The notes under the pieces are model-generated. The model had not been told where the DNA came from. It was given only the letters and a program-made list of their open reading frames with translations, and made no database searches. The position numbers and the translations under genes were made by a program. From Calditrichia bacterium (GTDB lineage: Bacteria; Calditrichota; Calditrichia; RBG-13-44-9), in NCBI GenBank assembly GCA_037381445.1, contig JARRQT010000094.1, positions 1 through 38,142 of the forward strand: a stretch of DNA of 38,142 nucleotides, in the 5' to 3' direction. This document shows, in pieces, positions 182-37,720 of the stretch; position 1 is the first letter of the stretch; each line of letters opens with the position of its first letter.

Positions 182-610
182 TTTGTCCTATTAAATCAGG
201 CAAAGAACACGGCCAGTCCGTCAGACATTTATCATTCTTCAATGGCCCTTGAGCAACCCATATCGGTGATCCAGGTTGTGCCTTTCCCGGTAGCATCGGC
301 TCCTCCAATTATCCGCGCTTAATATATATTGAAGATTACAGCGGAACCATGCGGACCCTGGTTGCCGGTTTTGTAATACCCTTTCCGCGAATATTCTACG
401 GTTGACTGACAACTTCATTTCAACATCGCTTGGGCGATTAGCGGCTGGAAATGACGCACTTCCCTATCTGCCTGATTAAGCGGCCGCAAATTTAAAATAA
501 GGTACCACTGACCGATTCCAAGAGCCTGCCATCAATTTCTATGGTTTCATCAGTTTTACTCGATTGTGGCAAGGCTGAGGGGCCTTAAATACCGCGCTCT
601 ATCTTCAAAC
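182..610 (+). repeat. Long degenerate repeat, copy A (~230-nt upstream module plus hairpin core at 494-588)
   Basis: Aligns by eye with 2054-2447 through the blocks tttgtccta, atcattcttca, ttgagcaa, atatattgaagatt, gcggac, cctttccg-gaatat, ttgactga, aaaataaggt and tggcaaggctgag. Confidence 0.85.
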
Positions 611-764
611 CGTTGATAGCCGGACGATCCGGTGGTTATGCCATCAAATCCCGCATGGGCATGTTCAGTCAATGTCACAGGCCGTCCAACTGCAAGTGGT
701 CTCCGGGAGTTCAACTAATACAATAAAGAAATTACATTATATTTAGAAAAATATTAGTCATGTG

Positions 765-795
765 TATTGAATATTCAATATAAATTTATTATACT
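765..795 (+). promoter_or_regulatory. Sigma-70-type promoter with a palindromic operator overlapping the -35 box
   Basis: TTGAAT (767-772), 17 nt, TATACT (790-795). Perfect 16-bp palindrome TATTGAATATTCAATA at 765-780. Confidence 0.55.
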
Positions 796-1147
796 ACACA
801 CATTATCATATTATTTGCCAGCGGTACGGGAAATAGGCTCGCTCAATTCTGCCAGGAAATTCGATACAGGTTTTATTGATTTAATGCTAAGATCGGTGTA
901 ATAGCTATTCTTCTGCAAAAAGAATTCTTTTTCGGAGGTTTTCACATAATCGTGCAAAAAAAGAGGATATGCAGCGCAGGCATGGTGTCAGGCTGTCGGA
1001 ACTAAAGATAATATGCCTGGAAGAGCATATTGTGGACATTCACGAAAATATGCGGGTTGATGGAAACAAAACGGATGTATTAAAGAACATTTAAAATATA
1101 GCAGGAGGAGCTAATTTGCAGGTCAGCCCTAAGAAGGAGGTTTATAT

Positions 1148-2035
1148 ATGAACATTAAAAATGCCGGAACAACGATCATTGTCATCACAATTCTTCATTT
1201 GTATTTTGGTTTTTCAAAGGACATATTGTCCGTTCAAGCACGGAATCAACCTCAAGATTTTATTGATGCCATCATAGTGGTTGATTCGCTAACCATATCG
1301 ATTTTAGCAAACAATGATATTGTCGCTCAGCTGCATGCAGATTCAGGCGCCTATTTTTGCCCTGGAGTCAATTATGATAATTCTACAAAACTAATCTCGG
1401 CAATCCAATTTACTCCCCACAGTGAATTTTCCGATAGCTTCAAAAGCCTCGTTTGGGACCATTTATCAAATAAAAAATGGATTATTTTGGAAGGAACCAG
1501 CAATGATGGCGAAGGATATCATGCGCCGATCGCCCATAACTTTTCTCCGGCAAATAATACGGCCATAGTTCAACATTGGGGATATGAATGGTCCGGGATA
1601 ACCTATTTTAGAGATGGCATTCAGGATGGAATCCAAGCATTAGCTCATATGCAGGGCGTAGGATTTCTTGCAGAACTTCCTAACGAGCAAATCATAGTTT
1701 ATGCATATACTGACATCGGAGCCCCCATTCAGTATTTCATCTATTCGTGGAGAACAAAAGTGGCAAATGAGATTTCGCAGGAGCAATTATTGGAATATAA
1801 GCACTTAATATTATCTGAAACAGGATATAATGCGCTTTTCGAATTATCAAAGCCCAAAATAGAGGGAAGATACTTTAATAATATTTATTGGAATCCAGAT
1901 GGTAATGCATTTGTCTACACTACACTCTCCATAGAAACGCGAAAGAAGATATTACATCTTTTCAATTATGAAACGATGGAAGATTATATACTTGAAGAGA
2001 ACCATAATGGTTACATGGTAATTTGGCGAAAATAA
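1148..2035 (+). CDS. Hypothetical exported protein with a TolB/PD40-like C-terminal motif
   Basis: 295-aa ORF with strong RBS (aaggagg), hydrophobic N-terminus and YWNPDGNAFVY propeller-like motif. AT-rich relative to the core locus. Confidence 0.7.
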   Translation: MNIKNAGTTIIVITILHLYFGFSKDILSVQARNQPQDFIDAIIVVDSLTISILANNDIVAQLHADSGAYFCPGVNYDNSTKLISAIQFTPHSEFSDSFKSLVWDHLSNKKWIILEGTSNDGEGYHAPIAHNFSPANNTAIVQHWGYEWSGITYFRDGIQDGIQALAHMQGVGFLAELPNEQIIVYAYTDIGAPIQYFIYSWRTKVANEISQEQLLEYKHLILSETGYNALFELSKPKIEGRYFNNIYWNPDGNAFVYTTLSIETRKKILHLFNYETMEDYILEENHNGYMVIWRK

Positions 2036-2053
2036 GCCAAAGGCCGATAATCA

Positions 2054-2447
2054 TTTGTCCTAAATGGTAAGACAAAAAAGAGGCCCTGCCAGAAGAACAT
2101 TAATCATTCTTCAGTTAACGTTGAGCAATAAATACTATCGGCCTGACCGGCGATTTTTTCAAGCTCGCAAGCCTCTTCAATGATCCCAGCCAAACATATA
2201 TTGAAGATTGCAGCCGAACCAGGCGGACATTGGCTACCAGTTTTGTTAAAACCTTTCCGTGAATATCATGGATTGACTGATGATGCCCCCCCTCTCCCCT
2301 TGGGCCTTATGAAGCGGCTCAAAACCAAAATAAGGTGCCTCAGATCGATTTTAAACGCCTGCCCGAAAATCCGATATATTTAACTTCTTCGTTTCCAACC
2401 GATCCTGGCAAGGCTGAGCGGCACATATGGCGGCTTTCTCCAAACCG
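2054..2447 (+). repeat. Long degenerate repeat, copy B (hairpin core at 2326-2425)
   Basis: Direct repeat of 182-610. Starts about 18 nt after the stop of the 1148-2035 ORF. Confidence 0.85.
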
Positions 2448-2453
2448 CAAATG

Positions 2454-2545
2454 CAAAAGAAGCTAACTCAGATCGATGCCAAAAGCCTAATCAAATATCC
2501 GTCCATTTTATTGTTGCTTCAGTTCCAGCGATTTTGAGGAGGGAA
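2454..2545 (+). repeat. Degenerate tandem copy of the hairpin core
   Basis: caaaagaagctaactcagatcgatgccaaaagcct...cttcagttccagcgat resembles caaaataaggtgcctcagatcgattttaaacgcct...cttcgtttccaaccgat. Confidence 0.6.
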
Positions 2546-2979
2546 GCCGTTTCCAAAGGGCCTGAATCAATCCGGTCCGCAAAATTCCTGCGTCTTTCAT
2601 AATCTGCCAAGACAACGGTTTATCAGACATTACCAATAATCCAACCTAATCTGCGATCATACACTCAATCACACTTGGGCTTGGCATAGAACCATCATGT
2701 GCCCCCGGAAGCCTATCATTTTTCCTCACTTTGTCTGGCACGTCCTTTCCAATTTCTTTAAAATTAAACATCCAGGCACAATATCGGTGGCGTCGGCCCT
2801 CGCGCCCCGGAACGAAAAATGATATAATCAAACCATTTTATAGCCATTCGACGATCGATGAACTTAAAGTGAAAATTTTTGTTTTATATATCACCCGTTC
2901 GCGGAGATGGAACATATTGTTCATGAAGGTCTTGCATAATGTATTTATTTTTAATCCAATTTGAGGAGGTACTGGCGCA

Positions 2980-4371
2980 ATGCAAAAATTTGATACTATT
3001 ATTATCGGTGGCGGACCGGGAGGAACTCCCGCTGCAATTCAACTGGCTTCAAAAGGCCAAAAAGTACTATTGGTCGAAAAGTCGGGCAAACTTGGCGGCG
3101 CATGTTTGTTTGTTGGTTGTATTCCTTCAAAGATTATAAAACACTCGGCAGATCAATATGCGCAGCTTAAAACTACAGCCCTCCTCACTCAGGAAAAACT
3201 TGAAGATATGAGAGATCTCTGGGATGATATAAAGAAGAGAATGGATAGTATCCTCACCTTACGTTCCCAGGCAGCCAGGCAGCATATCGAACAATTATCC
3301 GGTTTAACTTTCAGTTCCGGCACCGGCAGGTTTATTTCAGATCGGGAAATGGAAATTGAAGAAGTGGGCGGGGCGAAAAATCGTTATGGTTTTAACAATG
3401 CAATCATCGCCACCGGATCGATTCCATTTATGCCTGAATTCCGCGGGGATGCAGTGCGGGAAGTCCTGAAGAGCGAAATGCTTTTTCAGGAAAGAGTCCT
3501 GCCCAAATCAATGGTCATCATTGGAGGCGGCCCAATTGGTATTGAATTGGCGCAAATGCTGACGAAACTTGATGTGAAATGCACAATTATTGAAATGATG
3601 GACGACCTTTTATCAGGCATCGTTGAACCGGAATTTGTGCAGGCGCTCACTCAAAAACTGGTCGCTTCCGGCATCGATGTTTTTACTTCATCAAAAGTGG
3701 TGGAAATAAATAAATCGGGCGGAAACTTCAATATAATAATCGTTGATAAATCCGGCATAAAAAAAGTTGTTTTGGCCGAACAGGTAATGGCTGCGGCGGG
3801 CAGGGTACCGAATATCGAGGCGCTTCACCTGGAAGCGGCTGGCATTGGGTTCAACCGGCATGGCATCTCTGTAAATGATTACCTTGAGACAACTGTGAAG
3901 GGGATTTACGCCACCGGCGATGTTATTGAAGGACCGAAATTTGCGCATACGGCAACCTATGAGGCTCATATCGCCGCAGCAAACATCCTGATGGGAAACA
4001 TCCATAAAAAAGAATTTGGCAAAAATTCTTGGGTACTCTTCTCCGATCCGGAAATTGCTTCCGCCGGGTATACCGAGGCAGAAGCAATAAGAAATGGTTT
4101 CGACGTTGTAACCGGCTCGTATGATTACAATATCGATGCAGCTGCACAGATTACCGGAGATCCCTGCGGATATCTTAAATTTGTAGTGAACAGGAAAAAC
4201 AGCGAATTCCTGGGTATCCATATCTTTACGAAGGGAGCTGCTTCAATCATCGGGGAGGCAGCCCTGATGGTGTCGAAAAAAATGACCCTGCAAGATGTGG
4301 CACAGGCAATCCATCCGCATCCGACATTAACCGAGGCCTTTGGTTTCCTGGCATCAAATATGGTTGGTTGA
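2980..4371 (+). CDS. Dihydrolipoyl dehydrogenase-family pyridine nucleotide-disulfide oxidoreductase
   Basis: GGGPGG FAD motif, redox CxxxxC (GGACLFVGCIPSK), GGGPIG NAD motif, C-terminal HPTLTEA, RBS gaggagg. Confidence 0.92.
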   Translation: MQKFDTIIIGGGPGGTPAAIQLASKGQKVLLVEKSGKLGGACLFVGCIPSKIIKHSADQYAQLKTTALLTQEKLEDMRDLWDDIKKRMDSILTLRSQAARQHIEQLSGLTFSSGTGRFISDREMEIEEVGGAKNRYGFNNAIIATGSIPFMPEFRGDAVREVLKSEMLFQERVLPKSMVIIGGGPIGIELAQMLTKLDVKCTIIEMMDDLLSGIVEPEFVQALTQKLVASGIDVFTSSKVVEINKSGGNFNIIIVDKSGIKKVVLAEQVMAAAGRVPNIEALHLEAAGIGFNRHGISVNDYLETTVKGIYATGDVIEGPKFAHTATYEAHIAAANILMGNIHKKEFGKNSWVLFSDPEIASAGYTEAEAIRNGFDVVTGSYDYNIDAAAQITGDPCGYLKFVVNRKNSEFLGIHIFTKGAASIIGEAALMVSKKMTLQDVAQAIHPHPTLTEAFGFLASNMVG

Positions 4372-4452
4372 ATCGATTTTGAAATAATTTTTAATGAAAT
4401 TTGTAGGAGAAAAGGAAGGGCAGGTTATGGCAACCTGCCCGCTTTGTCTTAC

Positions 4453-4755
4453 TCATTTTTTGGCGCAATCCATACAGACTTTGCTGTCGCCCTTGAGACG
4501 TCCGTATTCGGTCACGGTCATTTCCCCGCATTCCTCGCAGACAAAGCTGTTGAAGCTGTGGGCCGGGTCCCGGTGGTCGGTATCGAAAACATCCGAGCGG
4601 TTAATGATCATTTCTTCCGGTGCTGACATTACTTTCTCCCCCAAAGGATCGGCAACTCCCGCCGGCACCTGGGTGGGCGGCACGCCCTCTTCGCGGTAGT
4701 CCTTGAAAAATGCGGTATGTTTATTGGCCTGCATCGCTTCAGCTTTAGGTGTCAC
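4453..4755 (-). pseudogene. C-terminal fragment of an FmdE-family protein with a TraR/DksA-type Zn finger
   Basis: SFVCEECGEMTVTEYGRLKGDSKVCMDC (CxxC...CxxC) is typical of FmdE C-termini. The N-terminal FmdE domain (FHGH.CP) is absent. Confidence 0.65.
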
Positions 4756-4810
4756 CTGCTCCGCTTACCACTAATGCCTTCGGTGAACAAAACAAAAAGG
4801 ATTTATAAAA

Positions 4811-5182
4811 ATGGACAATAAGACTATTGCAGTCCTGGAAAATCAACTTAAAGCAGCGATGCTAAATTCTGACGCATCGGTTCTCGATGAGTTTTTAGCT
4901 GACAGGCTTATCTTTACCAATCATCTTGGTCAAGTCGTGTCAAAGGAGAATGATATCGAAGCTTATCGTTCAGGCACTGCCAAAATCAAGTCAATTAACC
5001 AGTCTGAACAGCGAATTAGGGTGGAGGGTGATACTGCAATTGTCTCGGTTCTTTCACCTATTTCCGGAGAATTCGGAGGTGCGCAATATACTGCAATTCT
5101 GCGTTTTACTCGCGTCTGGCAAAAAGGAGGAAACAACAAATGGCAGGTCATCGCCGCTCATTCATCATTAATGACGGGGTAA
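4811..5182 (+). CDS. NTF2-like / DUF4440 family protein
   Basis: Pattern LE..L..AM...D...LD..LAD.LIFTNH.G....K..D and C-terminal RFTRVWQK....WQVIAAHSS. Confidence 0.88.
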   Translation: MDNKTIAVLENQLKAAMLNSDASVLDEFLADRLIFTNHLGQVVSKENDIEAYRSGTAKIKSINQSEQRIRVEGDTAIVSVLSPISGEFGGAQYTAILRFTRVWQKGGNNKWQVIAAHSSLMTG

Positions 5183-5263
5183 ATCCTGCGGTCACTCATA
5201 TCTTTGTCCCCCAAAAGAGGATGTGCCAAGGCTGTGGTAGAAGTATGGGATATACTGCAAAAT

Positions 5264-5366
5264 CAAAATAATGTACACCACATCGATTTTAAGAGCCTGC
5301 CATCGAATTCAACCATTCTATGGTTTCATGGGTTTCATTCGATTGTGGCAAGGCTAAGAGCCTTAT
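5264..5366 (+). repeat. Hairpin-core repeat copy (closest to the copy at 494-588)
   Basis: caaaataatgtac..atcgattttaagagcctgccatc...ttctatggtttcat...cgattgtggcaaggctaagagcctta. Confidence 0.85.
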
Positions 5367-5607
5367 ACAGGCTTCTTGCGAAACATAGATATCAAATGCT
5401 TCCATTACCCGCAATAACCCGAATTGGCGACATACAATCCGATCTTCACCGTGGGCGAAGTTATGCCGGACAGGATAGAGTGAATACCGGATTTCCTGGA
5501 TTTGGTCAGGAACCCATGCAGGCAGTCCCTCACCTGAAACGACCATATTATATTGCCGCAGGTAGCACCTCCTAATTCATTCATCTGGCGTCATGAGCCG
5601 CAAAACC

Positions 5608-5697
5608 CAAATAAGGCCCCTTAGATTGGATCTAAAAATCCAACCCATTTGTGGTTTTGCCAATTCCATCGGATTCTGACGAGGCTGGAGAGCATTA
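5608..5697 (+). repeat. Degenerate hairpin-core repeat copy
   Basis: caaataaggccccttagat...ccat...gattctgacgaggctggagagcatta. Confidence 0.55.
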
Positions 5698-6074
5698 TGG
5701 ATTTTTAAATATTGCAAATGGCAATTACTCCCATCTGCCCGGCAATACAAATAAAGAATAACATAGTAACATGTCCGAGAACATTCACTGCTGAGGTCGA
5801 TGAGTTTCAACGGATGGCTTGATCAATATATATCTCTCAAATTATGATAAAAAATGATATATATGATTCTATGAAATATTAATTATTTTGTCCGAGCCGG
5901 AAATCGTCATTTTGAATTTTGAAGTAGCCTTATTTTCCATCCAAAACTCTCTGACTTTTTAAGAGATAGCTAAAGTAATCTCCTCTTGCCTCTTACCTTT
6001 TTTAATTATAGCTTAATCTTTAGCGCAGTTGCCAAAATGCGAATCAGAATCTTATAGCAAGCCGGAGATTTGTT

Positions 6075-7436
6075 ATGAAAGATTCAGGTAGCCATTCTCA
6101 GCACTCAAAATTGAATTCCGGTTCATTTGCAGCACGTTATAATCTTGCTATCGTGATGTTCATGGTGGCAATTTTTCTTTCCCTCATTTTCTATCTTCTT
6201 CCTTTCAGCATTACCGGTTCAAAACGGGAAATCAGAAAAATTTATTTTGCTGACAACATCACACCGGCCCATAAGGAGATAATCGAGCATTTCAATCAAA
6301 AATATCGCGGAAAGATAGAAGTGGTGGCGGTCGATCTTCCCTTCAGCAAATTCACTACCAATGAACGGAAGGAATTGATCGCCCGTGCGCTGCGGAACAG
6401 CAACAGCCGGATTGACATTTTTACCGTTGATCAGATCTGGGTACCGCGCTTCGCAAAATGGGCAGAACCCCTTTCCCGCTATTTTGCTCGACGGGAGATT
6501 GGGCGTATCCTTCCTGCAGCTTTGTCCACCTGCTACCAGGAAGATATTCTTGTGGGAGTCCCGCTGCACATCGATATTGGCGTTCTCTATTATCGGAAAG
6601 ACCTTCTTCAAAATCTGCCAAATCCGGCAGCGCTGGAGCGCCGGTTAAAATCTTCCATGACCTGGGACGATTTTATCGGGCTTAAAAAATCAGCGCCTTC
6701 CGATTATCCGTTTTATGTATTTCAGGCCGAGAATTATGAAGGGCTGACTCTGCACTTAATGGAAGTGTGCGGTGAATCCCTTTCCGATTTTATTAGCGGG
6801 AATAAAATTCATTTGAACAATCCCAGCCTGATTCGAGCCTGCCAGCTGCTGGTGAATCTGGTGAATGAGGCATCCTGCTCGCCGGCTGGAGTTCTTGGTT
6901 TCAATGAAAGTGCAAGCTATTCCTATGCGCTGGCCCAAGACGCTCTGTTTTTGCGCGGATGGCCGGGATTACTGCGCGAGGCCGCAGATTATCCTTATGG
7001 AAAAGAAAAGGCGGACTTGCTGGGGATCGCCGCGCTTCCTCACCTCACAGGGAGAGAACCTGCATCTGCATTCGGCGGATGGAACCTGATGGTCTCCCGA
7101 CATTCCCACAATAAAGAGGAAGCTGTTTTATTCCTCAAATATGTTCTCTCCGATGAAGCACAAAAAACTTTGTACGAAACCGCCGGATTTCTTCCCATTC
7201 TGAAGAGTATCTATGCCGACTCCTCATATATAGCAGCCCATTCCCATCTTTCCGATTTCGGGAGCCTGTTGGAAAGAGGCATTTTTCGTCCTGCACATCC
7301 GGAATACACCAAAATATCCAATGTGCTTTCATATTATATTCACAGGGCCCTGGAAAGGCAGATTTCGCCAGAAGAAGCACTCTCCCTCTCCGAAAAAGAA
7401 ATAAACGGCAAAATACTGGCTGGTCATTCAGATTAA
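6075..7436 (+). CDS. Membrane-anchored extracellular sugar-binding protein (SBP family 1), probably sensory
   Basis: N-terminal TM helix and SBP motifs (IDIFTVDQIWVPRFA, LYYRKDLL, GGWNLMVS, RPAHPEY). Directly upstream of the kinase, with no ABC permease or ATPase nearby. Confidence 0.88.
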   Translation: MKDSGSHSQHSKLNSGSFAARYNLAIVMFMVAIFLSLIFYLLPFSITGSKREIRKIYFADNITPAHKEIIEHFNQKYRGKIEVVAVDLPFSKFTTNERKELIARALRNSNSRIDIFTVDQIWVPRFAKWAEPLSRYFARREIGRILPAALSTCYQEDILVGVPLHIDIGVLYYRKDLLQNLPNPAALERRLKSSMTWDDFIGLKKSAPSDYPFYVFQAENYEGLTLHLMEVCGESLSDFISGNKIHLNNPSLIRACQLLVNLVNEASCSPAGVLGFNESASYSYALAQDALFLRGWPGLLREAADYPYGKEKADLLGIAALPHLTGREPASAFGGWNLMVSRHSHNKEEAVLFLKYVLSDEAQKTLYETAGFLPILKSIYADSSYIAAHSHLSDFGSLLERGIFRPAHPEYTKISNVLSYYIHRALERQISPEEALSLSEKEINGKILAGHSD

Positions 7437-7459: not shown

Positions 7460-8947
7460 ATGAGACATTTTTTTGAAAAAATGAAAAATTACCGGTTCCA
7501 GATTCAGCATCTTATTATCCTGTTCGCTATTCTGTTATTATTTCAAACGCTTTTGTCATATATCAACACAGCTTCCACTGATAACCTGCTGAGCAAAACG
7601 ATGGAGCTGTATCGCAAGGATTCAGCAGAAAACTTCGCCGATCTGACCGCCACCTCGCTCGAGCTCTTATTGGAGCATGAGCTCAGTGTTACCCGCACCG
7701 CAGAAAGCCATAAGGTAGCAGTCAGGGAATTCAATATCATCCTGAGTCAGCAATCGCTCCGGCAAAATGTGAGCAATCTGTGCGTTATTGTTAATTCGGG
7801 CGATCGTATTTTTACTATTGATGACGGCAATGAACTTTATGATTTTTTCCTTAACAAGGAAACACCTGTCGATGCGATGGATACCCGCTATGCCGGAGCA
7901 GTCAGGTATTATGTCAGCAGCAAAAATGAACTCTTTAAGAACGAGCAAATAACCAGCTTTATGGATGAATCCCGGACTTTCAACGTGCTGGTTCCGTTTG
8001 GACCCATGGGCGAAATTGCGGGGGCGGTTTATATGAAAATATCACCGGATTTCACCAATATCGCCAACGAGATCAGTTCGGTCTCCGGTGAAACCGGTGC
8101 GATTTTCTCTGCGCTGATACTGCTGGCATTATTGGCAAATTTTTACATGGGTTCTTATATGATCAAAGAACGGGATATGGCGCAGTCCGAACTTTTTGAT
8201 GAAAGACAGTTGCAGATAAAGCAGCAGGTCGAACATGAAAAGGAATCGCTGTTCACTAAACGTATTTATCACGCCCATCATAAAGCCGAAAAAATTATGG
8301 GATTCATCAAAACGGATGTGCGGTCGCTTACTCCGCAGAATATCGATTCTCTCAGGAACAAGATTATCAAGTATGCGAATTTCGTGTCCCGGGTAATTTA
8401 TGATATGAAAACATATGAGCCGCCGCTGAATGTTGTCCGCGACCCTGTCTTTCAAACCAATATAAATGAAGTAATCCGCTTCATCGTTGGCAATATTTTT
8501 AACCGGAATTACCAGCGGAGCTCGGGCACGCATTTTAATCTGGCGCTGGATAACAATCTTCCGCCTGTCCCGGTCAATGAATATGTGGTGTGGGAGATAA
8601 TTGAGCCGCTCATCCAAAACAGCCTGGATCATAATGCAGATCTGGACATCACCGTAACCATCCGGACATTATTTGACTCACGACGAAAGCAGCTTCAGAT
8701 CATGATATCAGATGACGGCCGCGGAATAGATGCTTCACTGCTGGAATTTGATGAAGACGGGATCAGACATATTTTTCATGAAAATACTACTACAAAGAAG
8801 TCCGGTCAAAATGCCGGGTATGGCTGTTACCTTGCCTTCGAAATCAGCCGGAAATGGTGCAGGTGGTCGCTGGATGCGGCGAATGGAAATGCAGGCGGCG
8901 CGCAGTTTACCATTACCATACCGCAAGGAGAGAGCAAAGAATTATGA
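7460..8947 (+). CDS. Two-TM sensor histidine kinase with an atypical H box
   Basis: Two TM segments around a periplasmic domain. HATPase N box (PLIQNSLDH), G1 (DDGRGID) and G2 (GYG). His-rich IYHAHHKAE region. Confidence 0.85.
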   Translation: MRHFFEKMKNYRFQIQHLIILFAILLLFQTLLSYINTASTDNLLSKTMELYRKDSAENFADLTATSLELLLEHELSVTRTAESHKVAVREFNIILSQQSLRQNVSNLCVIVNSGDRIFTIDDGNELYDFFLNKETPVDAMDTRYAGAVRYYVSSKNELFKNEQITSFMDESRTFNVLVPFGPMGEIAGAVYMKISPDFTNIANEISSVSGETGAIFSALILLALLANFYMGSYMIKERDMAQSELFDERQLQIKQQVEHEKESLFTKRIYHAHHKAEKIMGFIKTDVRSLTPQNIDSLRNKIIKYANFVSRVIYDMKTYEPPLNVVRDPVFQTNINEVIRFIVGNIFNRNYQRSSGTHFNLALDNNLPPVPVNEYVVWEIIEPLIQNSLDHNADLDITVTIRTLFDSRRKQLQIMISDDGRGIDASLLEFDEDGIRHIFHENTTTKKSGQNAGYGCYLAFEISRKWCRWSLDAANGNAGGAQFTITIPQGESKEL

Positions 8948-10228
8948 ATGAAGAGAAAATCAGGCTGCTGGTAATTGAAGATGAAGAATTCGATGTGCAG
9001 CGCATCAGCAATACACTTGCTCCTTATCGGGAAAGGATTGATATCAGCGAGGTGGTTTCCAGCGGCAAAGAAGCCCTGAATGCATTACGCAACAATCCGG
9101 GAGGGTTTGATGTATCGGTCATGGATTACCAGATATCAGGCGGTCTTTACGGAGAGGAACTCATCCGGGACCTTAAGAAGCTGCAGCCGACCCTGCAGAT
9201 CCTGGTGATTACTAAGATGACCATAAATCAGACCAATATTCATTTCGCCAACCAGTTGCTGAACAGCGGGGCATTCTGGTATGGAACGAAATATCCCGGC
9301 GACATCGAAGACTATATTTACCAGCCCACCGATTTTGTATTAAGCATCCTTAACGCCTATGACAAGAAACAACTGGAGATGGAACGCATTCGGTCACATG
9401 ATAAGCTTGACAAGAACATCAATATGCTGATTGCAAAAACTGCTATAATTGGAGAATCGCCCGCGATACAGGATCTCAGGCAGCAGATTCAAAAGTATGC
9501 CCTGCCGAATGCCAGTATCCTGATCCTGGGGGAATCCGGAACCGGCAAAGAACTGGTGGCCCGCAATCTTCATTATTTCAGCAAACGCAAATATGAAAAT
9601 TTTGTGACCGTAAATTGCGCATCCATTCCAAAAGAATTGATGGAAAGTGAACTCTTCGGGTTTGAGAAGGGGGCGTTCACCGGTGCCAGGGAACCGCGGC
9701 AAGGTTTGTTTGAACAGGCCAACCACGGGACTATTTTTCTGGATGAAATTACAGAATTACCCCCCGAAGCTCAGGGCAAACTGCTGCGCGTATTGCAGGA
9801 GGGAGAAATTGACCATTCCGCTGCTGACAAAGCATTTTCTCAACATTTTCAGCAGAGACATGGGAGTGTCCGAGCCCGGACTCTCCAAAGAGGCAATGGA
9901 AACGCTCTCAACTTACCGCTGGCCGGGAAATGTCCGGCAGCTTAAAAATGTAATTAACCGGATAGTCATCCTTGGCTCGGGCGAAATCGATAAATCCACT
10001 GTGCAGCATGCCATCGATATGGATAAACGCGGACGCACCGGCCTGATGTCACTGCCGGTCTTTCAGGACAACCGCTTCATGCCCCTTAAGCAGATGGAGA
10101 CGGAGTTCAGAAAACAATACGTCCAGTTTGTCAGGAATAATTGCCGCACGGATGCCGAGGCCGCTGAAAAATTAGGATATCTGCCGCCGAATTTCCACCG
10201 CCTGTGCAAGGAGCTGGGGCTAAAATAG
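8944..10228 (+). pseudogene. NtrC-family sigma-54 response regulator broken by an internal frameshifting deletion near 9813
   Basis: REC domain, Walker A GESGTGKE, GAFTGA and Walker B FLDEI. After LQEGEID the protein continues in another frame as IPLL...YRWPGNVRQLKN plus HTH. The VRVIAATN...FR.DL.YRL block is missing. ATGA-coupled to the kinase stop. Confidence 0.88.
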
Positions 10229-23189: not shown

Positions 23190-25186
23190 ATGGTTTTGAG
23201 GCGCAATATTTTCATTCGCGGTATGCAGATTCTTTACCGAACAAAAACACGGAAATCTGCTGCAGGAGGGCTTTTTCTTCTCACCTTTCTCATAAACTTC
23301 GGTCCGGCATTATGCCAGGACAATTTTATCACTGACATCAGAACCGACTGCGCCCGTTACTCCCCGGGTGACACGGTACATTTCACAATGGCATTTCAAT
23401 CCGCGCCGCAAGGCGATTCACTGCACATCGTCTATCGGCATCTTGACCAGCGCGTTGGTGAGCAAGGGATTGCAGACATCTCAACCGGGGAAATTCAATG
23501 GGACTGGCTGCCGCCCGGAAATGATTACCGGAGCTATCTGGCCGAAGCCGCGCGGATCGGAAGCAATTCCCCAATATTCGTATCTGAATTCTATCCAGAT
23601 TGATCAGGTTTTGGACCGTCTCAATCGCTACCATATCAATGGACTGCAATTCTATGACTGGCATCATAAACACCATAAACCCCTCAAGGGGACTCCGGAT
23701 AATCCCGCATCCACCTGGAATGACATTGCCAACCGGACCAATTATTTTGCCACCGTCCAGGGATACATTCTGGGCGCCCATAAGCGGCATATGAAGGCCA
23801 TGGCCTACAACCTGCTCTACGGCGCCTGGGAAGATGCCCTGCCGGATGGCGTCCTGCCTGAATGGCGTCTGTTTCACGACTCTGCCCACCAGCAGCCCGA
23901 TTTTCATGATCTCCCCTCTTCCTGGGCCAGTGATATCTACTTAATGGACCCCACAAATCAGAAATGGATGGATTATATTTTTTCAACGACCCGGGATGCC
24001 CTGACCGCCCTTCCTTTTGACGGCTGGCATATCGATCAGCTCGGAGATCGCGGCACTCTCTACAATTACCAGGGACAGGCGGTTAACCTGGCCAATTCAT
24101 TTCTTCCTGTCATTCAACAGGCCAAAGATTCGCTGGGCGTTGATCTGGTTATGAATGCGGTTAATCAATTTGGACAAGGCGGAATTTCCCTTGCACCGGT
24201 GGATTTTCTGTATACCGAAGTGTGGGCGCCCAATACCCAATATGCCGATCTCGCTTCCGTTATTGTCTATAATAATTTTCTGGGCCATAACAACCTGAAA
24301 AGCGTATTGGCTGCCTATATCAACCACGATCTCTCCGGAAGTCCGGGGCAGTTTAACTCGCCCGCGGTATTATTGGCTGATGCGGTGATCTTTGCCGCCG
24401 GCGGGGCGCATCTTGAATTGGGCGAACATATGCTGGGAAGCGAGTATTTTCCCAACAGCAACCTGTCCATGAGCCAGGATTTGCAGACGGCGCTTATCCG
24501 CTATTACGACTTTCTGGGCTATTTCCACCCTGCAAACCGCGGGCCCTTATATGCTCTCCGCCTCCCCGCAGCAGGGCAGGATTTGGGTCATCGCCAGGAA
24601 ATCCAGCCGCCATACGCTCTATCACCTGATAAATTTCAGTGACGCTGCCGCCATGGAGTGGGCCGACAACTCCGGAATTCAGACTGAGCCGGATACCATA
24701 TTCTCCCTGCCCCTCTCCTTCCGGAGCGGTGAAAACATTGCGAAGCTGTGGACGGCCTCCCCGGATTTTGATGATTGTTCGCCCCGGGAAATTGGATTCT
24801 CTGCGAACTCGGACACCATATCGTTTGTCCTTCCCAGACTCAAATACTGGACCATGGTTGTCGCGGAAACCGATTCCGCTCTGGACATAAACTCCGGTTC
24901 ACGTAAAGATATGCCCGGAAATTTCCGGTTGACCGGCAATTTCCCCAATCCCTTTAATCCGTCAACCCGTATTGAATTCTACCTGCTCCACCGGGCAAGA
25001 CTGCGAATTGACATTTATAACACCCTTGGCCAGAAAATCATCACCCTTGCAAACAGACTTTTCGGTCCGGGGCGACATTCCGTAAAGTGGCAGCCGGCGG
25101 ATAATCTTGCCTCCGGCATTTATATCTGCCGGCTTTATATTGAAAATCAGATAAAAGAAAGCAAAAAACTGCTTTTCATGAAATGA
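23190..25186 (+). pseudogene. Second GH66 with T9SS C-terminal domain, disrupted by three frameshifting deletions
   Basis: Segments homologous to the upstream GH66 lie in different frames, with junctions near 23553, 23572 and 24517. Ends NFPNPFNP...SGIYICRL...KKLLFMK. Confidence 0.88.
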
Positions 25187-27919: not shown

Positions 27920-28002
27920 TACGCCCCCGGACAAACCATAGAACAACCTCGGGAGTGCGGCAATTCTGCCCCATTGGACCGGAAGCTGAGCCAGCCTTTT
28001 AA

Positions 28003-28038
28003 CTTCATTTGATTACAGCAAGGCTGAGAGTTTTTTAC
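28003..28038 (+). repeat. Partial (right arm) hairpin-core repeat copy
   Basis: cttcatttgattacagcaaggctgagagttttttac retains the gcaaggctgag motif. Lies between convergent genes. Confidence 0.4.
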
Positions 28039-28102
28039 AGTAATCTCTACCTGCAATAAATTGATAGAAAAATGCTCCGGGGGTCAAGCTGTCCAATTCA
28101 GC

Positions 28103-29350
28103 CTATTTTATCAAAATGCCCTTCCTGGTTTCGCTAAAATTGCCCGCCACCATTTTAAAATAATACACGCCGGAACTAAAATTAGCCGAATTCCAGGTTA
28201 TCGAATAATCACCCGGATTTTTATTTTCACTCACTAGGGTGGCGACTTCCTGCCCGACGGTATTGTATACTTTCAATGAAACCGATGAAACCGTGGAGAC
28301 ATGATAGCTGACAGTGGTGCTGGGATTAAATGGATTGGGATAATTTTGGTCCAAATGGAATCCCGAAGGAAGATCGGGATTGGCTGGAGCAATACCTGTC
28401 CAGGGACTCATATCATAGCGCCATAAGCCATCCCAGCGCCCGGCCCACAGGCGGTTCCCGGAGACGAACAGGTCCCAGAGCCATGCAAATTCATGGGCCC
28501 GGATATCCCACGTCTCTCCCATATCATCGCTGGAGAATATCCAATGCTCATTATGATATAAAAGTCCGGCAAATAAACGCGATTCATGGGCTGCCAGGGT
28601 AAAGATGTCCTGATCGGGAAAGACCGAAATGTCCCGCTTTTGCCAGTTTTGAGCATCGGCGCTTCCCCTGTAAATGCCATGATCCGTACCGGCATACATA
28701 TATTGCCCCAGAGAAAGAATATCATACACCTGGTGCTGCGCTATGCTGGAGTCAAGGGTAACAGCTGTCCATTGGGAACTTCCTCGGGGCCGCATGAAAA
28801 GATACTGTCCGATCCCTGCAACCAGAATATCGCCGCTGGCAAGAATGCTGGAAACACCCCACTGGAACAGCCCGGAATTGAAAGCCAGCCAGGAAACCGG
28901 ATTGTTCAGGTTGAGAACATAGACACCGCTGCCATCTGTTCCGGCATAAAGGCTGTCTCCAAAAACGGTAAATGCGGAGATACGGGCCGCAAAGCCGGAC
29001 AGACCGCCACTCAAATCTGTCCAGGTTTGTCCGCCATCGGAGCTGCGATAAACCCCGGCGCCGGATGTGCCAAGATAGATATCCTTTCCATGGGAAAAGA
29101 GTTTTGTAAAATCAGCAGTTGAATTGGGCTGTTCGGGAGTTGCCTGCCAGGTATCGCCCATATCCGTGCTTTTAAAAATCTGCCCGGGGGTTGCCGCATA
29201 GAGGTCGCCATCGTGCACAATGAGCGAAACAACATCCATCGAATCTATCTCGGTAACCCGCTGCCAGTTTTGCGAACTCCCCTCCTGTATCCAGGCGGCG
29301 ATAAACAAAATACTGTATATTACATTATTTATATGAACGCGCTTTAGCAT
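28103..29350 (-). CDS. Beta-propeller (BNR/Asp-box, YCF48-like) protein with T9SS C-terminal domain
   Basis: Signal peptide, Asp-boxes STDMGDTW, SSDGGQTW and SDDMGETW, and LDQNYPNPFNP...SSGVYYF tail. Confidence 0.88.
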   Translation of the reverse strand: MLKRVHINNVIYSILFIAAWIQEGSSQNWQRVTEIDSMDVVSLIVHDGDLYAATPGQIFKSTDMGDTWQATPEQPNSTADFTKLFSHGKDIYLGTSGAGVYRSSDGGQTWTDLSGGLSGFAARISAFTVFGDSLYAGTDGSGVYVLNLNNPVSWLAFNSGLFQWGVSSILASGDILVAGIGQYLFMRPRGSSQWTAVTLDSSIAQHQVYDILSLGQYMYAGTDHGIYRGSADAQNWQKRDISVFPDQDIFTLAAHESRLFAGLLYHNEHWIFSSDDMGETWDIRAHEFAWLWDLFVSGNRLWAGRWDGLWRYDMSPWTGIAPANPDLPSGFHLDQNYPNPFNPSTTVSYHVSTVSSVSLKVYNTVGQEVATLVSENKNPGDYSITWNSANFSSGVYYFKMVAGNFSETRKGILIK

Positions 29351-31783: not shown

Positions 31784-31875
31784 CAAAAGAACTCCTCAGA
31801 CCGATGTTAAAGTCGTGAATAAATCTGCATAGAGGAACGATTGCAGTCGATCATGGCAAGACTGAACGGCCCTGA
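31784..31875 (+). repeat. Degenerate hairpin-core repeat copy
   Basis: caaaagaactcctcagaccgatgttaaagtc...gtcgatcatggcaagactgaacggccct. Confidence 0.65.
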
Positions 31876-32545
31876 AGACATCATTTCGAGGCATAAAACA
31901 GTTTTGGAGACCATGTGCATGAGGTTCGGTCCATTTAAACCGCATCGGATCGCTATTATCATATATTTCGATATAAAATAGTTTGTAAAAATCTTGGAAA
32001 ATAAATTCCCATTTTATACATTATTGAATGATAGTCTTCGTCAATAAGGACGGATTATGACAAGCAATACGCGTCACCGGCCAAAACAATTTCAGAATCG
32101 CAGTCTCCCCTTCATGAAAACATGCCGTATGATCCTGAACATTCCGGACCGCACCACAGAACGCTTCTTTGCTGAAGCCGATTATGGAGGCGTATATACA
32201 AAATATCCTATTACCGGATTAACAATGAAATAGGGTCATCCGGACTCTCTTGAACGATTTGGGACAAGGCGCGTCATTCTATTTTTCACTCTGCTTCACC
32301 ATGCGATGTCTTCTGCTGTTTTTTCAGGAAACAGATAAATCCTGAACCGCAAAATCAGGATCTTTCCATGACGGGGTTTTAATTCGGGTAAGATTGTTTT
32401 AATATACAAGAAGATGCAGCAATTGCCGAGACCTTCACCAACACGGGGGATCAAAATGCCCAGGGAAAATGCAGAACCTGACCAACCGACAACAAAGGAG
32501 AGGGAGGAGAACAAAGGGGGGAATTTAAAAATCGGGAGGATATCG

Positions 32546-35044
32546 ATGGTGTCCTCGATAAGACAGTACCGGGTTGAAGAAGAACGGCAAATCAAAGACA
32601 GCGCCATTGAATCATCCCTGAACGCCATTGCCCTGGCGGATCTACAATGGAATGTCAGCTATGTCAATCCGGCCTTTCTGGAAGCCTGGGGATACGATGC
32701 CCGCGAAGAAGTATTGGGAAGAAACTGCACTGAATTCTGGGCCAGCCCCGAACAGGCGTACGGCGTTATTGAAATCCTGAAAACCCGGGGATACTGGAAA
32801 GGCGAACTCACTGCTAAACGAAAAGACCACACAACATTCGACGCGCTGTCGACGACCAGCGTGGTGAAGGACAAAGCGGGTCATATCATATCCGTGCTGG
32901 GCTCATTTATTGATATTTCCGAGCGTAAAAGAGCTGAGGAAGCCCTGCGCAAGGCCAACCGCGCGCTGCGCACCATTACTGAATTCGACCAGGCACTGGT
33001 GCGCCTCAACGACGAACAGGAATTGCTGGATTATCTGTGCAGGGTTCTCATTGAAATGGGAGGCTACCGGCTGGCCTGGGTGGGTTATGCAGCGCACGAT
33101 GCACAGCGAAGCATTCGGGTGGTGGCACAGAAAGGCTTTGAAAGCGGCTTCCTGGAGGACCTTCGCTTGACCTGGGCCGACAGCAGGCGGGGACGCGGCC
33201 CGGCGGGAACCGCCGTCCGGACCGGAGAGCCGGTGATCAGTCAGAACCTTATCACCGATCCCAATTTTGCACCCTGGCGGGAGGAAGCCGTACAGCGCGG
33301 TTTTGCCTCCTCCATTTCCTTGCCGCTTTTTCTGAATAATAAAATCCTCGGTAATCTGAATATCTGCGCGACAGAGGTCAACGCCTTCGATCGGGAAGAA
33401 ATCGATCTGCTCATCAAACTGGCAGACAATTTGTCCTATGGCATCAACACGCTGCGCACCCGCGCCGAACGTCGCCGGGCAGAGCGGGCCCTGCAGGAGA
33501 GCGAAAGACGCTATCACACCCTTTTTGAAGATTCGCCGGTGCCGCTGGCCGAGGAGGATTTATCGCAGGTCAAAGAATATGTCGACCGGCTGGTCGCCTC
33601 AGGTATAGAAGACCTCGAAGGATATCTTCGGGACAATCCGGGCGTGGTGGATGAATTGATTTCGATCATTAACATTACGGACGTTAACCGGGCATTTCTT
33701 ACATTATTGGAGATTGAAGACAAGCGCTTGGTCCCCCTGGACATAAAAAAATATGTTTCCGAGGAAAAATATTCTTCCTTCATCCGGGGATTCATGGCGC
33801 TGCATCTCCGGAAATCGCATTTTGAAATGGAGCGATCTGTCAGGACCTCCTCCGGAACTCCGCTGAATGTTCTCTTCAATTGGCAGGTTGTCCCCGGTTA
33901 TGAGGCGGATTTTTCGAAGGTACTGATATCCCTGGTAGATATCACTGCCCGCAAAAAGACCGAGAGAGCGCTGCAGCTGAGTGAAGCACGCCATCGCGGG
34001 ATGATGGAATCGGCGCCGGACGGCATCATGGTTTTTAACAGCGAGGGCCGCCTGCTGCTCATGAATGCTCAGGCTGAGAAAATGTTCGGCTATCGCCAGC
34101 AGGAAATGCTGGGAAAGCCGGTCAACAGTTTTATGCCGAAGCATCTGAATCGGCGCCACAACAGGCATCTGGAACACTATTTAAATAACCCGAAGGTGCT
34201 CCATTTGGGCAATGGCAGGGAGCTGGTCAGTTTGCGAAAGGACGGCACTGTTTTTCCGGTGGAGATAAGCCTCAGCCCCTGGCATAGTGAGAACAATCTG
34301 CTGATTATGGCCATCATACGGGATATCTCCAAACGCAAAGAGGCCGAATCAAAACTTAAAAAGTCCGAAGATGATCTGCGTAAGCTTTCCATGAGGCTGT
34401 TGACGGTGCGTGAGGAAGAAAGAAAATTTATCGCCCGGGAAATTCACGATGAACTGGGTCAGCAGCTCACCGGCATGAAAATTGACCTTTACTGGCTGAA
34501 AAGCAGGCTGGAAAAGCCGGATTGCCTGAAAGCCGGGCAAAGCTTGAATAATAAACTGCAGGCCGCACTGGACATGGTAGACACCGCCATTAAAACCGTA
34601 CGGCGTATCGCCACTCAGCTTCGTCCCGCCTTACTAGATGATGCCGGATTGACCAGAGCCATGGAGTGGCATGCCCGGGAATTTTCGAATCGCACCGGCA
34701 TTGAGTGCCGCCTGTCCGCTCCTGAGAAAAATATCGCATTTGACAAAGACCAGTCAATCGCCGTCTTCCGCATTTTTCAGGAATCCCTTACCAATGTGGC
34801 GCGCCATGCCGGCGCCAGCCGGATAGACGTCATTATGAAAAAACTAAAGACACGCTTTATCCTCCGCATTAAGGACAACGGACGGGGAATCACGCCCGGG
34901 GAAATTGATAAGTCCCAATCGCTGGGACTGGTCGGTATCCGGGAGCGGAGCATCGCCCTGGGGGGTAAAGCAGAGATCTGCGGAAAGCCCGGCGAAGGTA
35001 CCACGGTTACTGTGGAAATACCGTTGAGGAAGCGGGGCAAATAG
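32546..35044 (+). CDS. Cytoplasmic PAS-GAF-PAS-PAS sensor histidine kinase (HisKA_3, NarX/UhpB type)
   Basis: PAS/PAC ends DISERK, DITARK and DISKRK, a GAF domain, EERKFIAREIHDELGQ, QESLTNVARHA and DNGRG. ATG 32546 has a GGAGG RBS (ORF open from 32414). Confidence 0.9.
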   Translation: MVSSIRQYRVEEERQIKDSAIESSLNAIALADLQWNVSYVNPAFLEAWGYDAREEVLGRNCTEFWASPEQAYGVIEILKTRGYWKGELTAKRKDHTTFDALSTTSVVKDKAGHIISVLGSFIDISERKRAEEALRKANRALRTITEFDQALVRLNDEQELLDYLCRVLIEMGGYRLAWVGYAAHDAQRSIRVVAQKGFESGFLEDLRLTWADSRRGRGPAGTAVRTGEPVISQNLITDPNFAPWREEAVQRGFASSISLPLFLNNKILGNLNICATEVNAFDREEIDLLIKLADNLSYGINTLRTRAERRRAERALQESERRYHTLFEDSPVPLAEEDLSQVKEYVDRLVASGIEDLEGYLRDNPGVVDELISIINITDVNRAFLTLLEIEDKRLVPLDIKKYVSEEKYSSFIRGFMALHLRKSHFEMERSVRTSSGTPLNVLFNWQVVPGYEADFSKVLISLVDITARKKTERALQLSEARHRGMMESAPDGIMVFNSEGRLLLMNAQAEKMFGYRQQEMLGKPVNSFMPKHLNRRHNRHLEHYLNNPKVLHLGNGRELVSLRKDGTVFPVEISLSPWHSENNLLIMAIIRDISKRKEAESKLKKSEDDLRKLSMRLLTVREEERKFIAREIHDELGQQLTGMKIDLYWLKSRLEKPDCLKAGQSLNNKLQAALDMVDTAIKTVRRIATQLRPALLDDAGLTRAMEWHAREFSNRTGIECRLSAPEKNIAFDKDQSIAVFRIFQESLTNVARHAGASRIDVIMKKLKTRFILRIKDNGRGITPGEIDKSQSLGLVGIRERSIALGGKAEICGKPGEGTTVTVEIPLRKRGK

Positions 35045-35130
35045 GTTGCACTCTGTTTTTTAATCGGACAAGAAGATCGCCCGGTGCTCCCCATTTCATT
35101 GGAGGCCACACGTATATTCCGCCTGCTCTC

Positions 35131-35310
35131 TCCCCCTGCGGCAGGACCAGGCTGCAAGCGCCGACGTTTTTTATCCTGTCATTATTCCATGAATTCAAAA
35201 TAAGGTACTTCATATCGATTATAACGGCCTGACTGAGAATCCATACTTTGTTTCTTCGTTTCCGGTCGATTCTGGTTAGGCTGAGAGGCCTTTACACCCG
35301 CTTCCATCTT
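35131..35310 (+). repeat. Left direct repeat of the TA module (hairpin core at 35196-35294)
   Basis: 35167-35270 matches 37574-37682 apart from one substitution and a 5-nt indel. Confidence 0.92.
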
Positions 35311-35313
35311 CGA

Positions 35314-35790
35314 ATGAGGTTCCAGATCCCCGGTCCCGAGGACATCAAATATTTCATGGACAACTGTAGCCTCTCCCTGCGGGATATGGTGGCTTTAACC
35401 GGGATCGCTTTTAAAACCATCGACCGCTACCGGAAGGGCGCTATTCCCGATCCGTCAAACGCCAAATTTCTGAAAATGATTATGAGGCATCCTTTCCTTG
35501 TGATGGATTTAATGGAGGAAAATGAGCATTTTCAGGCTGCCCGCTTTAAAAAGATGAAAGAAAAATTACGGCGCGAGATTGAACGTCTAAACTCCGAAAT
35601 TTGCCTGGAGTGCCCTGTGAGGGAAGCGTATGGCAGGTATATTATTCCCGACAGACAGCAAAAACCGGAATTTGACAGAGAGTGGGAACCCGGAAGAAAG
35701 GATCCGATTGTCGAAAATATAGCAGGAGAAGCCTATGCCTGTTGTTGCGGAAAGATATCATCAATTTGTAAGCAATCTGGAAATCATTAA
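35314..35790 (+). CDS. MqsA/HigA-like HTH antitoxin with extended C-terminal tail, probably 5' truncated
   Basis: PEDIK......LS.RDM..L.GI..KTI.RY..G..P HTH, followed by a low-structure tail with aromatic residues. No N-terminal Zn finger, and the upstream frame runs into the repeat. Confidence 0.7.
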   Translation: MRFQIPGPEDIKYFMDNCSLSLRDMVALTGIAFKTIDRYRKGAIPDPSNAKFLKMIMRHPFLVMDLMEENEHFQAARFKKMKEKLRREIERLNSEICLECPVREAYGRYIIPDRQQKPEFDREWEPGRKDPIVENIAGEAYACCCGKISSICKQSGNH

Positions 35791-36289
35791 TATTACGGCC
35801 CCGTCCGTTTCATGGGAGCTGTTGAAAGCCCCGCCGAAAAATAGCGAATTATTCCATTCAACTGAAATTAATTTATTGGACCCGATAATTAAAGGCGAGT
35901 CAAACGCAGTGATTGGCGCCAAGCTTGTTGTGACAGGGAAGACAAAAAAGGCCAAAAAACCTTTCATGACCGTTAATATTACGCTTGAGTTGTCAATAAC
36001 CGTCCCTCCCGAATTTTTAACCCGGGAGATTTTAGAGGCATATGCGCAGCGAAATGCATCATTAACTCTGGTTGCTACTTTTAGAGAGCATGTCAAATAT
36101 GCCACTTTTCAAATGGGCCTGCGTCCTTTGGTCCTGCCGGCACTGAAGATACTGCCCCCCGAGCACGCCCAGGCAAGGCAATCAAAAAAACGTAATGCAT
36201 CCGGAACGAGAATTTTATCTTCGGGAGTTATCAAATCGTTTTCAGGTGTCACCCCGACAGATAAGCCTGGAGCTTTCAAATCTTCGTGA
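35735..36289 (+). CDS. SecB-like chaperone
   Basis: LEIINI..beta strands...AYAQRNA.......FREHV...T.QMGLRPLVLP fits the SecB-like N.....P..R......T..MG.PP..LP pattern. RBS aggag. Confidence 0.72.
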   Translation: MPVVAERYHQFVSNLEIINITAPSVSWELLKAPPKNSELFHSTEINLLDPIIKGESNAVIGAKLVVTGKTKKAKKPFMTVNITLELSITVPPEFLTREILEAYAQRNASLTLVATFREHVKYATFQMGLRPLVLPALKILPPEHAQARQSKKRNASGTRILSSGVIKSFSGVTPTDKPGAFKSS

Positions 36290-36758
36290 TATTGAACTCA
36301 TTAAAAAACGCGTATCAGGCAATCATCATTATTATTCTGTAAACCAGCAGCACCCTTTATTTGCCGATCTGCGCAATATCTTTTTGAAGACGATTGGCCT
36401 TACAGAGGTGCTTCGGAAATATTTGCGGCCTTTCGCAGAGGAGATTGATTATGCTTTTGTGTATGGTTCGATGGCTAAAGGCAATGCAACCGTGAAAAGT
36501 GACATCGACCTAATGGTCATCGGAGGCGTGACTTCGAGGAATCTGTCAGGCGCAATATTGGAAGCGGGACAAGAGTTGGAGCGGGAAATTAATTTTTCCG
36601 TTTTTAGCCTGCACGAAATGGAAAGTCGATTGAGAAATAGCGATCACTTTTTTACAACCCTGTTTTACGAACCTAAATTATTTGTTATAGGAAATTCCAG
36701 TGAGTTTGAGCGAATGGGAAAAAAATGGCTGGCTGAAAGCCCACAGGACCAGCAGTAA
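36195..36758 (+). CDS. wHTH-fused minimal nucleotidyltransferase (MNT antitoxin)
   Basis: EFYLRELS...ELSNL wHTH and AFVYGSMAKG...SDIDLMVIG pol-beta NTase motif. Confidence 0.88.
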   Translation: MHPEREFYLRELSNRFQVSPRQISLELSNLRDIELIKKRVSGNHHYYSVNQQHPLFADLRNIFLKTIGLTEVLRKYLRPFAEEIDYAFVYGSMAKGNATVKSDIDLMVIGGVTSRNLSGAILEAGQELEREINFSVFSLHEMESRLRNSDHFFTTLFYEPKLFVIGNSSEFERMGKKWLAESPQDQQ

Positions 36759-37143
36759 GGAGGTTCATAATCTTCTGAAGGTAATCGAAAGGGACCTTCA
36801 GGATTGCCAGGTGCAGCATGTCTCGGCAGATTGGCGGTTTGCAATCGCTTATAATGCAGCGCTTCAATGCTGCACCGTTGCGCTTTACTGTAGCGGTTAT
36901 AAGCCGGCCCGGGGTCAGAGCGAGCATTATCGTGTTATTCAATCACTTTCCCTGACGCTGGGCAATGATTTTGTGGAAATCCGCAATTATCTGAACGCCT
37001 GTCGTGCAAAAAGAAATGTAAGTGACTGCGATGCGGCGGGCACCATTTCTGACAGCGAAGTCGGTGAGCTGATTGAGACCGCCGTAGAATTGCGGGAAAG
37101 CCTGATCCGATGGTTAGAGAAAAATTATTCACAGTATCTGTAG
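36700..37143 (+). CDS. HEPN-domain protein (MNT-HEPN toxin partner)
   Basis: DWRF.IAYNAALQ....L...GY.......H and R.KRN...(Y) HEPN-like motifs. GTG start overlapping the MNT gene. Confidence 0.8.
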   Translation: MSLSEWEKNGWLKAHRTSSKEVHNLLKVIERDLQDCQVQHVSADWRFAIAYNAALQCCTVALYCSGYKPARGQSEHYRVIQSLSLTLGNDFVEIRNYLNACRAKRNVSDCDAAGTISDSEVGELIETAVELRESLIRWLEKNYSQYL

Positions 37144-37155
37144 GTTAAATCTGGG

Positions 37156-37720
37156 AATAGAAAGGCAATCAGATCTTTCCGGGCATGGCAGAAAATCTGA
37201 CCATTTCCTGGCATCTTCGTTCCCGTACGATCCTGACAAGGCTGAGGGCCTTTAGAGCCGCTTCCATTTTAAAATCCGGAATGGAAAGCGCAGTCTCCAG
37301 TTTCTTTTCACTAGTTAGTCCCGATGCTAAAATGCTGACCGAATAAATCCGCCCCCCCTTGCAGAAGGCAACACGGATTATAAGGGCCTGGCGGTCTGAC
37401 CCATTCTATTATAGTTTCTTCGATTCAAGTCGACCCTGGTTAGGCTGGGGGGCCTTTACAACCACTTTCCCCTCCGAAGAGGAATGGTGCCGTTCTTTTC
37501 AAGAGCCGGGGGAGTGCTAACCGAATAAATCCCTGCCATCCCCTTGCGGCAGGCTCAGGCTAAAGGCGCGACATTTTTTATCCTGTCATTATCCCATGAA
37601 TTCAAAATAAGGTACTTCATATCGATTATAACGGCCTGACTGAGAATCTGACCCATACTTTGTTTCTTCGTTTCCGGTCGATCATAGCGAGACTGAGAGG
37701 TCTTTACGTCCGCTTTTATT
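37156..37720 (+). repeat. Tandem array of three hairpin-core units (37156-37254, 37363-37458, 37603-37706)
   Basis: Each unit has cttcg.t.c...cga...a(g/a)(g/a)ctg.g.g.cttta. The linker tgct(g/a)accgaataaatcc...ccccttgc.g.aggc occurs twice (about 37333 and 37515). Confidence 0.85.

Follow-up and report, generated by a model that had tools for sequence, protein, structure and literature searches.

What is the repeat of about 100 nt that recurs between the accessory genes of a contig from an uncultured Calditrichia bacterium? The stretch of DNA analysed here, referred to as the window, is 38,142 nt long (positions 1 to 38,142 of contig JARRQT010000094.1, assembly GCA_037381445.1; GTDB lineage Calditrichota; Calditrichia; RBG-13-44-9). 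A preliminary description, made from the letters alone, listed eleven copies of the repeat and offered three explanations: a gene-cassette recombination site analogous to integron attC sites, a small mobile repeat, or a repeated non-coding RNA (ncRNA). The family is real and unannotated; it has no fold, no enzyme, no fixed crossover, and no conservation beyond one genome. On balance, it is somewhat probable that the repeats are decaying relic ends or junctions left by repeated insertion of an integrative mobile element particular to this lineage, one that has since lost its own enzymes and whose remains were then shuffled by homologous recombination.

The window contains ten near-full copies of this non-coding repeat and one partial copy, all on the + strand and all at the positions first reported. 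Each copy is named by a w and its start coordinate; names beginning with C denote contigs, and G000 is the genome analysed here. The near-full copies are w494 (494..588), w2326 (2326..2425), w2454 (2454..2545; 29 nt behind w2326, with a decayed right arm), w5264 (5264..5366), w5608 (5608..5697; middle shortened), w31784 (31784..31875; between divergent genes), w35196 (35196..35294), w37156 (37156..37254; left arm decayed), w37363 (37363..37458; left-truncated), and w37603 (37603..37706). The partial copy, w28003 (28003..28038), retains the right arm only. Pairwise identity ranges from 52% to 88%, with a median of 60% over 45 pairs, and the stretches between copies range from 29 nt to 22 kb. 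The glycan locus is free of the repeat, as first described, with no copy between 5.7 and 28.0 kb. All copies were said to lie outside credible genes; this holds for long open reading frames (ORFs), but the right arm of w35196 overlaps a 180-aa ORF (35248-35790) at its TTG-start end. The copies also follow stop codons in a loose sense: six of eleven lie within 350 nt of the stop of a + strand gene (343, 291, 82, 84, 152, and 13 nt, the last before w37156), but only one within 20 nt.

Is the family confined to the window? The assembly consists of 401 contigs and is 92% complete. A hidden Markov model (HMM) of the ten full copies recovered two unmodelled copies on contig C70 (C70a and C70b; E 4e-21 and 4e-11), as well as a copy on C51 that is split and a weak one on C118. 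The best match in a reversed-genome decoy had an E-value of 1.5, and the family is therefore far beyond chance. When the two C70 copies are aligned with those of the window, only six columns are invariant among the twelve, and the middle spacing varies from 63 to 75 nt. The right part of the repeat, about 50 nt, has about 26 copies across 11 contigs. For an HMM built from ten distant copies alone, the next ten matches were nine window-type copies and one further distant copy; E-values were 4e-5 at best and then 0.007 to 4, with a best decoy value of 0.98. At the level of sequence comparison, single matches between distant and window copies are weak, but their ranking is not. On 10 of 11 contigs the repeat runs in the direction of most genes, and on C118 it is mixed (3/4); in the comparison with replichores, skew on the contigs is confounded with gene strand. 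A scan for dif-like sites gave none with fewer than three mismatches; the 40 of 317 candidates that are listed include none from a repeat contig.

The unit of about 100 nt is real, but it is only the best preserved stretch within paralogous segments that span 180-460 nt. For example, 181-582 is paralogous to 2053-2421 (62% over the whole unit) and also to C51: the extended left segment of the w494 unit (181..493, + strand) resembles that of the w2326 unit (2053..2325, +), which has a further paralog at the end of C51. Similarly, 28001-28238, which covers w28003 and its right flank, is 76% identical to the C51 copy and its right flank. A DUF4440 gene with its left flank (4781..5237, +) is duplicated (82%) before C70b, a two-copy segment (37413..37810, +) is duplicated on C70 (81%), and the left flank of w35196 (35128..35195, +) is shared with w37603 and C70a.

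These flanks do not travel together, and neighbouring DNA appears to have been reshuffled at the copies. The C51 copy matches w2326 on its left and w28003 on its right; C70b matches w5264 on its left and w37363 on its right; and C93 matches C81 on its left and C271 and C118a on its right. C70a tracks w37603, then w37363, then w37603 again, while w35196 departs from w37603 at the anchor of the alignment; by eye, w5264 and C118b have a short right flank in common. The alignment has a high background, and the clear cases alone were used. In those cases, the flank partner changes at positions around -40, 0, and +20 to +40 relative to the anchor, at no single base. Reassortment of flanks at the copies fits the idea that the repeat marks a cassette boundary, and this part of the preliminary description stands, but the analogy with attC fails, as set out below. 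The variable switch points speak for homologous recombination between relics rather than for a dedicated site-specific system.

A view of a conspecific population comes from run X1, the assembled contigs of one study, which contain 93% of the sampled words and may not be independent of the assembly. X1 contigs bridge six of the eleven copies, and the neighbours are the same. Among the differences listed, X1 departs from the window by three substitutions and an additional 8 bases in w494, the middle of which is 8 nt shorter in the window, and by one substitution in w5264. It also has 185 extra bases at 36192, at the start of a gene with an ArsR-type helix-turn-helix (HTH) and an MntA-like region, where the window allele looks deleted. 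The differences are only partly listed and also cluster outside the repeats, so no claim about rates is made. Three X1 joints involve the repeats. One, from 35283 to 37702, agrees with the C70 paralog, and another, from 2290 to 545, is probably the C51 paralog. The joint from 37371 to 35148 is read as a longer left flank of w37363 that is apparently present in X1, and it may also represent a tandem or circular form of 2.2 kb. Separately, short high-depth contigs in run X3 match a 40-nt AT-rich stretch of the window (717-756) at ~82%, some of them twice, in the manner of spaced repeats; they are probably from another organism.

What lies beside the distant copies? Several are head-to-head with a PD-(D/E)XK nuclease gene, or with a pair consisting of an XRE-HTH gene and a DUF2726 gene, on the opposite strand. 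PD-(D/E)XK and DUF2726 each have six matches in the genome, mostly broken, versus 2 of 85 and 0 of 85 relatives, respectively, the relatives being 85 other genomes of the phylum, none of the same genus. The DUF2726 gene occurs on C81, C296, C118, C230, C93, and C224 (69-100%), beside an XRE-HTH gene on C81 and C118. In one relative, G022, a PD-(D/E)XK homolog is followed by pieces of a tyrosine integrase, and at two Marinimicrobia loci the homolog lies among genes read by eye as a mobile-element backbone. When the PD-(D/E)XK locus was sought in larger collections, viral and metagenome contigs gave no match, and genome contigs gave two loci that lack the repeat motif.

The repeat itself was sought widely. 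A blastn search found it in 0 of 40 relatives, and one search model (R2) in 0 of 85; another (R1) gave weak matches in 2 of 85 (E 0.002 and 0.004) that were judged to be chance on inspection. Among Marinimicrobia, it was in neither of the two genomes at the PD-(D/E)XK locus and in 0 of 101 genomes of that phylum. Exact-pattern scans, which can miss diverged copies, found nothing in viral contigs, genome contigs, or metagenomes; one plasmid match was irrelevant, and there was no phage match. The large searches with RNA models scored 37-44 candidates per genome and can miss weak copies.

How might such a family have arisen? If the repeats are relic ends of an integrative element, there would have been many insertions of that element, frequently next to older copies and with the same orientation. 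These insertions would leave cargo between direct repeats, including sugar-uptake loci, regulators, and pieces of toxin-antitoxin systems. Homologous recombination or gene conversion by the host, acting between repeats, would then duplicate, delete, and reassort neighbouring DNA. The decay of the copies is random, with variable spacing, no covariation, and extra deletions relative to X1. A similar process is known as tandem accretion: cis-mobilizable elements (CIMEs; PMC5704250) are decayed integrative and conjugative or integrative and mobilizable elements that have lost their integration genes and kept their ends, and that lie in tandem with cargo between direct repeats. As relic ends, the repeats would resemble CIME accretion; direct repeats, cargo, and broken mobile-type genes at distant copies are present. 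They differ in being ~100 nt long, heavily diverged, and spread over at least 11 contigs, and in that no target gene end, attL/attR pair, or related integrase was identified in the fragmented assembly. With neither a target gene nor an att pair identified, they are not classed as CIMEs. The repeats may also be compared with iOriT islands, which bear just an origin of transfer, lack transfer genes of their own, and have a short non-coding stretch as their shared mobility feature (bioRxiv 10.64898/2026.01.13.699239).

Several observations weigh against an origin as relic ends. First, no intact parent element was found anywhere searched. Second, no repeat contig has a mobile-type integrase or its remnant, and none has a tRNA or tmRNA target; the assembly is fragmented, and a linked enzyme could therefore be missing. 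Third, the homology between window and distant copies spans only ~50 nt and is individually weak. Fourth, 0 of 11 window copies adjoin a PD-(D/E)XK or DUF2726 remnant, and at the three PD-(D/E)XK homolog loci inspected in other genomes (G022 and the two Marinimicrobia loci) the motif is missing, so the link to a mobile backbone rests on this genome alone. Fifth, a slight excess of variation at third codon positions in the repeats would also be expected from a coding origin.

An alternative, which is unlikely, is that the repeat is a working cassette site other than attC, served by a recombinase encoded elsewhere or supplied by a helper element. The strict co-orientation of the eleven copies, the reassorted flanks, duplicated gene-plus-repeat units such as that of DUF4440, and the cassette-like cargo are all as such a site would have them. 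The two X1 joints that run backwards, 37371 to 35148 and 2290 to 545, are ambiguous evidence of the same kind, but both read as mapping to a paralog or a longer allele. Moreover, the switch points vary, only the six columns are invariant, segment length varies between 29 nt and 22 kb, and X1 has the same neighbours at the six copies that it bridges. There is also no candidate enzyme on the repeat contigs, apart from a broken gene for a Y1 transposase on C293.

The comparison with integrons is more specific, and the proposed analogy with attC fails on core, geometry, hairpin, and cassette size. A GTT core and a complementary AAC box, ordered on one strand, occur in 0 of 10 window copies and in 1 of 12 when C70 is included. 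Single-ORF cassettes ending at the site are not seen, given segments of 29 nt to 22 kb and a single copy less than 20 nt from a stop codon. The genome does encode an integron integrase (TIGR02249, E 1e-145; G000 C251:833-1798), which is unlinked to the repeats. There are attC-like sites of the long type at the end of C251 and at C101:12640, and a degenerate one on C261; they were recognized from the form of attC, as defined in bioRxiv 10.64898/2026.03.17.712381, and those on C251 and C101 belong to a sequence family different from the window repeat. The repeats are like attC arrays, including clusters of attC sites lacking integron-integrases (CALINs), in being co-oriented, non-coding, and placed between unrelated accessory genes in a genome with an integron integrase; they are unlike them in having no conserved GTT crossover, no palindrome, and no single-ORF cassettes. 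A literature search found no paper on integron repeats in Calditrichota.

A second repeat family touches the same integron contigs. It is represented in the window at 732-912, is ~175 nt long, and is found upstream of genes; its copies carry promoter-like boxes and a leader that is conserved. There are 14 copies genome-wide (E below 1e-15) and no Rfam match. The family adjoins sequence of the integrase contig C251 and precedes the attC-like site on C101, and it is a candidate shared promoter or leader RNA.

Which other enzymes are encoded in the assembly? There are three tyrosine recombinases, read as XerC, XerD, and IntI. The Y1 transposase has seven matches, on contigs other than that of the window, and one rve domain is found on C207. 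No IS110, resolvase, reverse transcriptase (RT), or cas1 gene was found in the assembly, and no IS66 match exceeded the cut-off. The suggested linkage to a recombinase or transposase was not found; the broken Y1 gene on C293 lies 3 kb from a match to the left part of the repeat only. The window itself was described as lacking any integrase or transposase; its last 100 nt match an insertion sequence (IS) remnant on C36 (87%). That remnant, the end of which is at 38042-38141, is IS5-like by eye and multi-copy in X1, and is likely the cause of the contig break.

It is also rather unlikely that the repeats are pieces of a protein-coding gene that decayed and was duplicated. In two units, the repeat and its left segment are spanned by one antisense frame, with stops, and third codon positions vary slightly more than the others (p 0.02-0.09, post hoc). 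For one 53-aa piece, the nearest entries in the ESM Atlas are an unnamed cluster (0.90) and two clusters bearing RVT_1 (0.86-0.87). Nonetheless, the synonymous fraction of the best frame does not exceed that of column shuffles (p 0.36 and 0.93), and indels in the middle of the repeat mostly break the frame. Among 1.84 billion representatives, the only matches were the C51 piece and five CRISPR-like arrays in translation, the latter judged to be chance; there was no protein homolog in Pfam or in the 85 relatives, and no intact gene matches the repeat. The RT lead failed as well: a profile of 26 RTs from relatives had no match in the window by hmmsearch, and the hhalign score was 9-12, below the top shuffled controls (14-20).

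A doubtful proposal is that the ~50-nt motif may be a working junction of an undescribed, non-integron gene-capture system. The motif would lie head-to-head with the PD-(D/E)XK nuclease gene as attI does with intI, and would precede co-oriented cargo. Such a system would stack and shuffle multi-gene nutrient-uptake islands without a tyrosine or serine recombinase.

More doubtful still is the reading that mobile modules bring the repeat along as a promoter or operator block or as an ncRNA. By eye, the left part of the distant copies reads as a -35 box, a 17-nt spacer, and a -10 box directed toward the divergent gene, but a promoter scan found no site in the five copies within 1-6100. The repeat had been called structured, yet RNAalifold gives 0 pairs over twelve copies. 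The mean RNA fold z-score of the twelve is -0.70 for the top strand and 0.01 for the bottom strand; DNA fold z-scores average about -0.3, and among the twelve copies one top strand and two bottom strands score under -2. Across the fold tests, 1 to 3 of 12 copies fall below a z-score of -2. The idea of a repeated ncRNA likewise finds no Rfam match, no consensus fold, no covariation, and no conservation in relatives; Rfam gave two chance matches in the window, away from the repeats, and none at five other loci.

Elements of the repetitive extragenic palindromic (REP) type with their associated tyrosine transposases (RAYTs), and miniature inverted-repeat transposable elements (MITEs) derived from insertion sequences, are lineage-specific intergenic repeats of about 100 nt. 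That the window repeat is one of these, mobilized in trans by a transposase of the Y1/RAYT or another type, is highly improbable. Its arms are loosely complementary, with a 14-pair structure from the consensus that is 75.5% paired versus 20-44% when slid, and the genome has its seven Y1 matches; however, that structure has no covariation (0.110 versus 0.127 shuffled), and the symmetry of the arms does not exceed that of control stretches (mean z 0.90 versus 0.44, sd 1.35) and is missing in distant copies. Unlike REP elements and MITEs, the repeats have no stable hairpin, no sharp termini, and no linked transposase, whether Y1 or IS110; their ends fade gradually into flanks held in common, and the copies are polar, clustered, and co-oriented rather than scattered. 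A CRISPR repeat was rejected, with neither an array nor cas1 found in the assembly.

The genes that neighbour the copies are varied. Those checked include the tail of an MGT-type glycosyltransferase gene, DUF4440, a PAS/GAF kinase, an MntA-like nucleotidyltransferase, and an MqsA-like HTH gene. The HEPN label given to 36700-37143 has no Pfam or NCBIfam match behind it and rests on the position of that gene behind the MntA-like one. A 295-aa protein (1148-2035) is secreted-looking and matches neither Pfam nor NCBIfam, and a piece of a dksA/traR-like zinc-finger gene (4534-4755) is 90% identical to C133:5188-5409. A second GH66 gene (23190-25186) is in three frame-shifted pieces, and a sigma-54 regulator gene (8854-10228) likewise looks split. 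A promoter-like segment with the start of a gene remnant (31971-32223) is also found on C93 and C335, where, by eye, it precedes a Fur-like gene.

What would the family mean for this organism? If the repeats are relic ends of an integrative element, they would be an ordinary but useful marker of acquired islands in an uncultured lineage, and the islands delimited in this way include a 22-kb dextran-type uptake locus. The family would also show relic ends reshuffling cargo. If the ~50-nt motif were instead the junction of a gene-capture system, for which neither an enzyme nor a fixed crossover has so far been seen, it would reveal a route of gene capture outside integrons.

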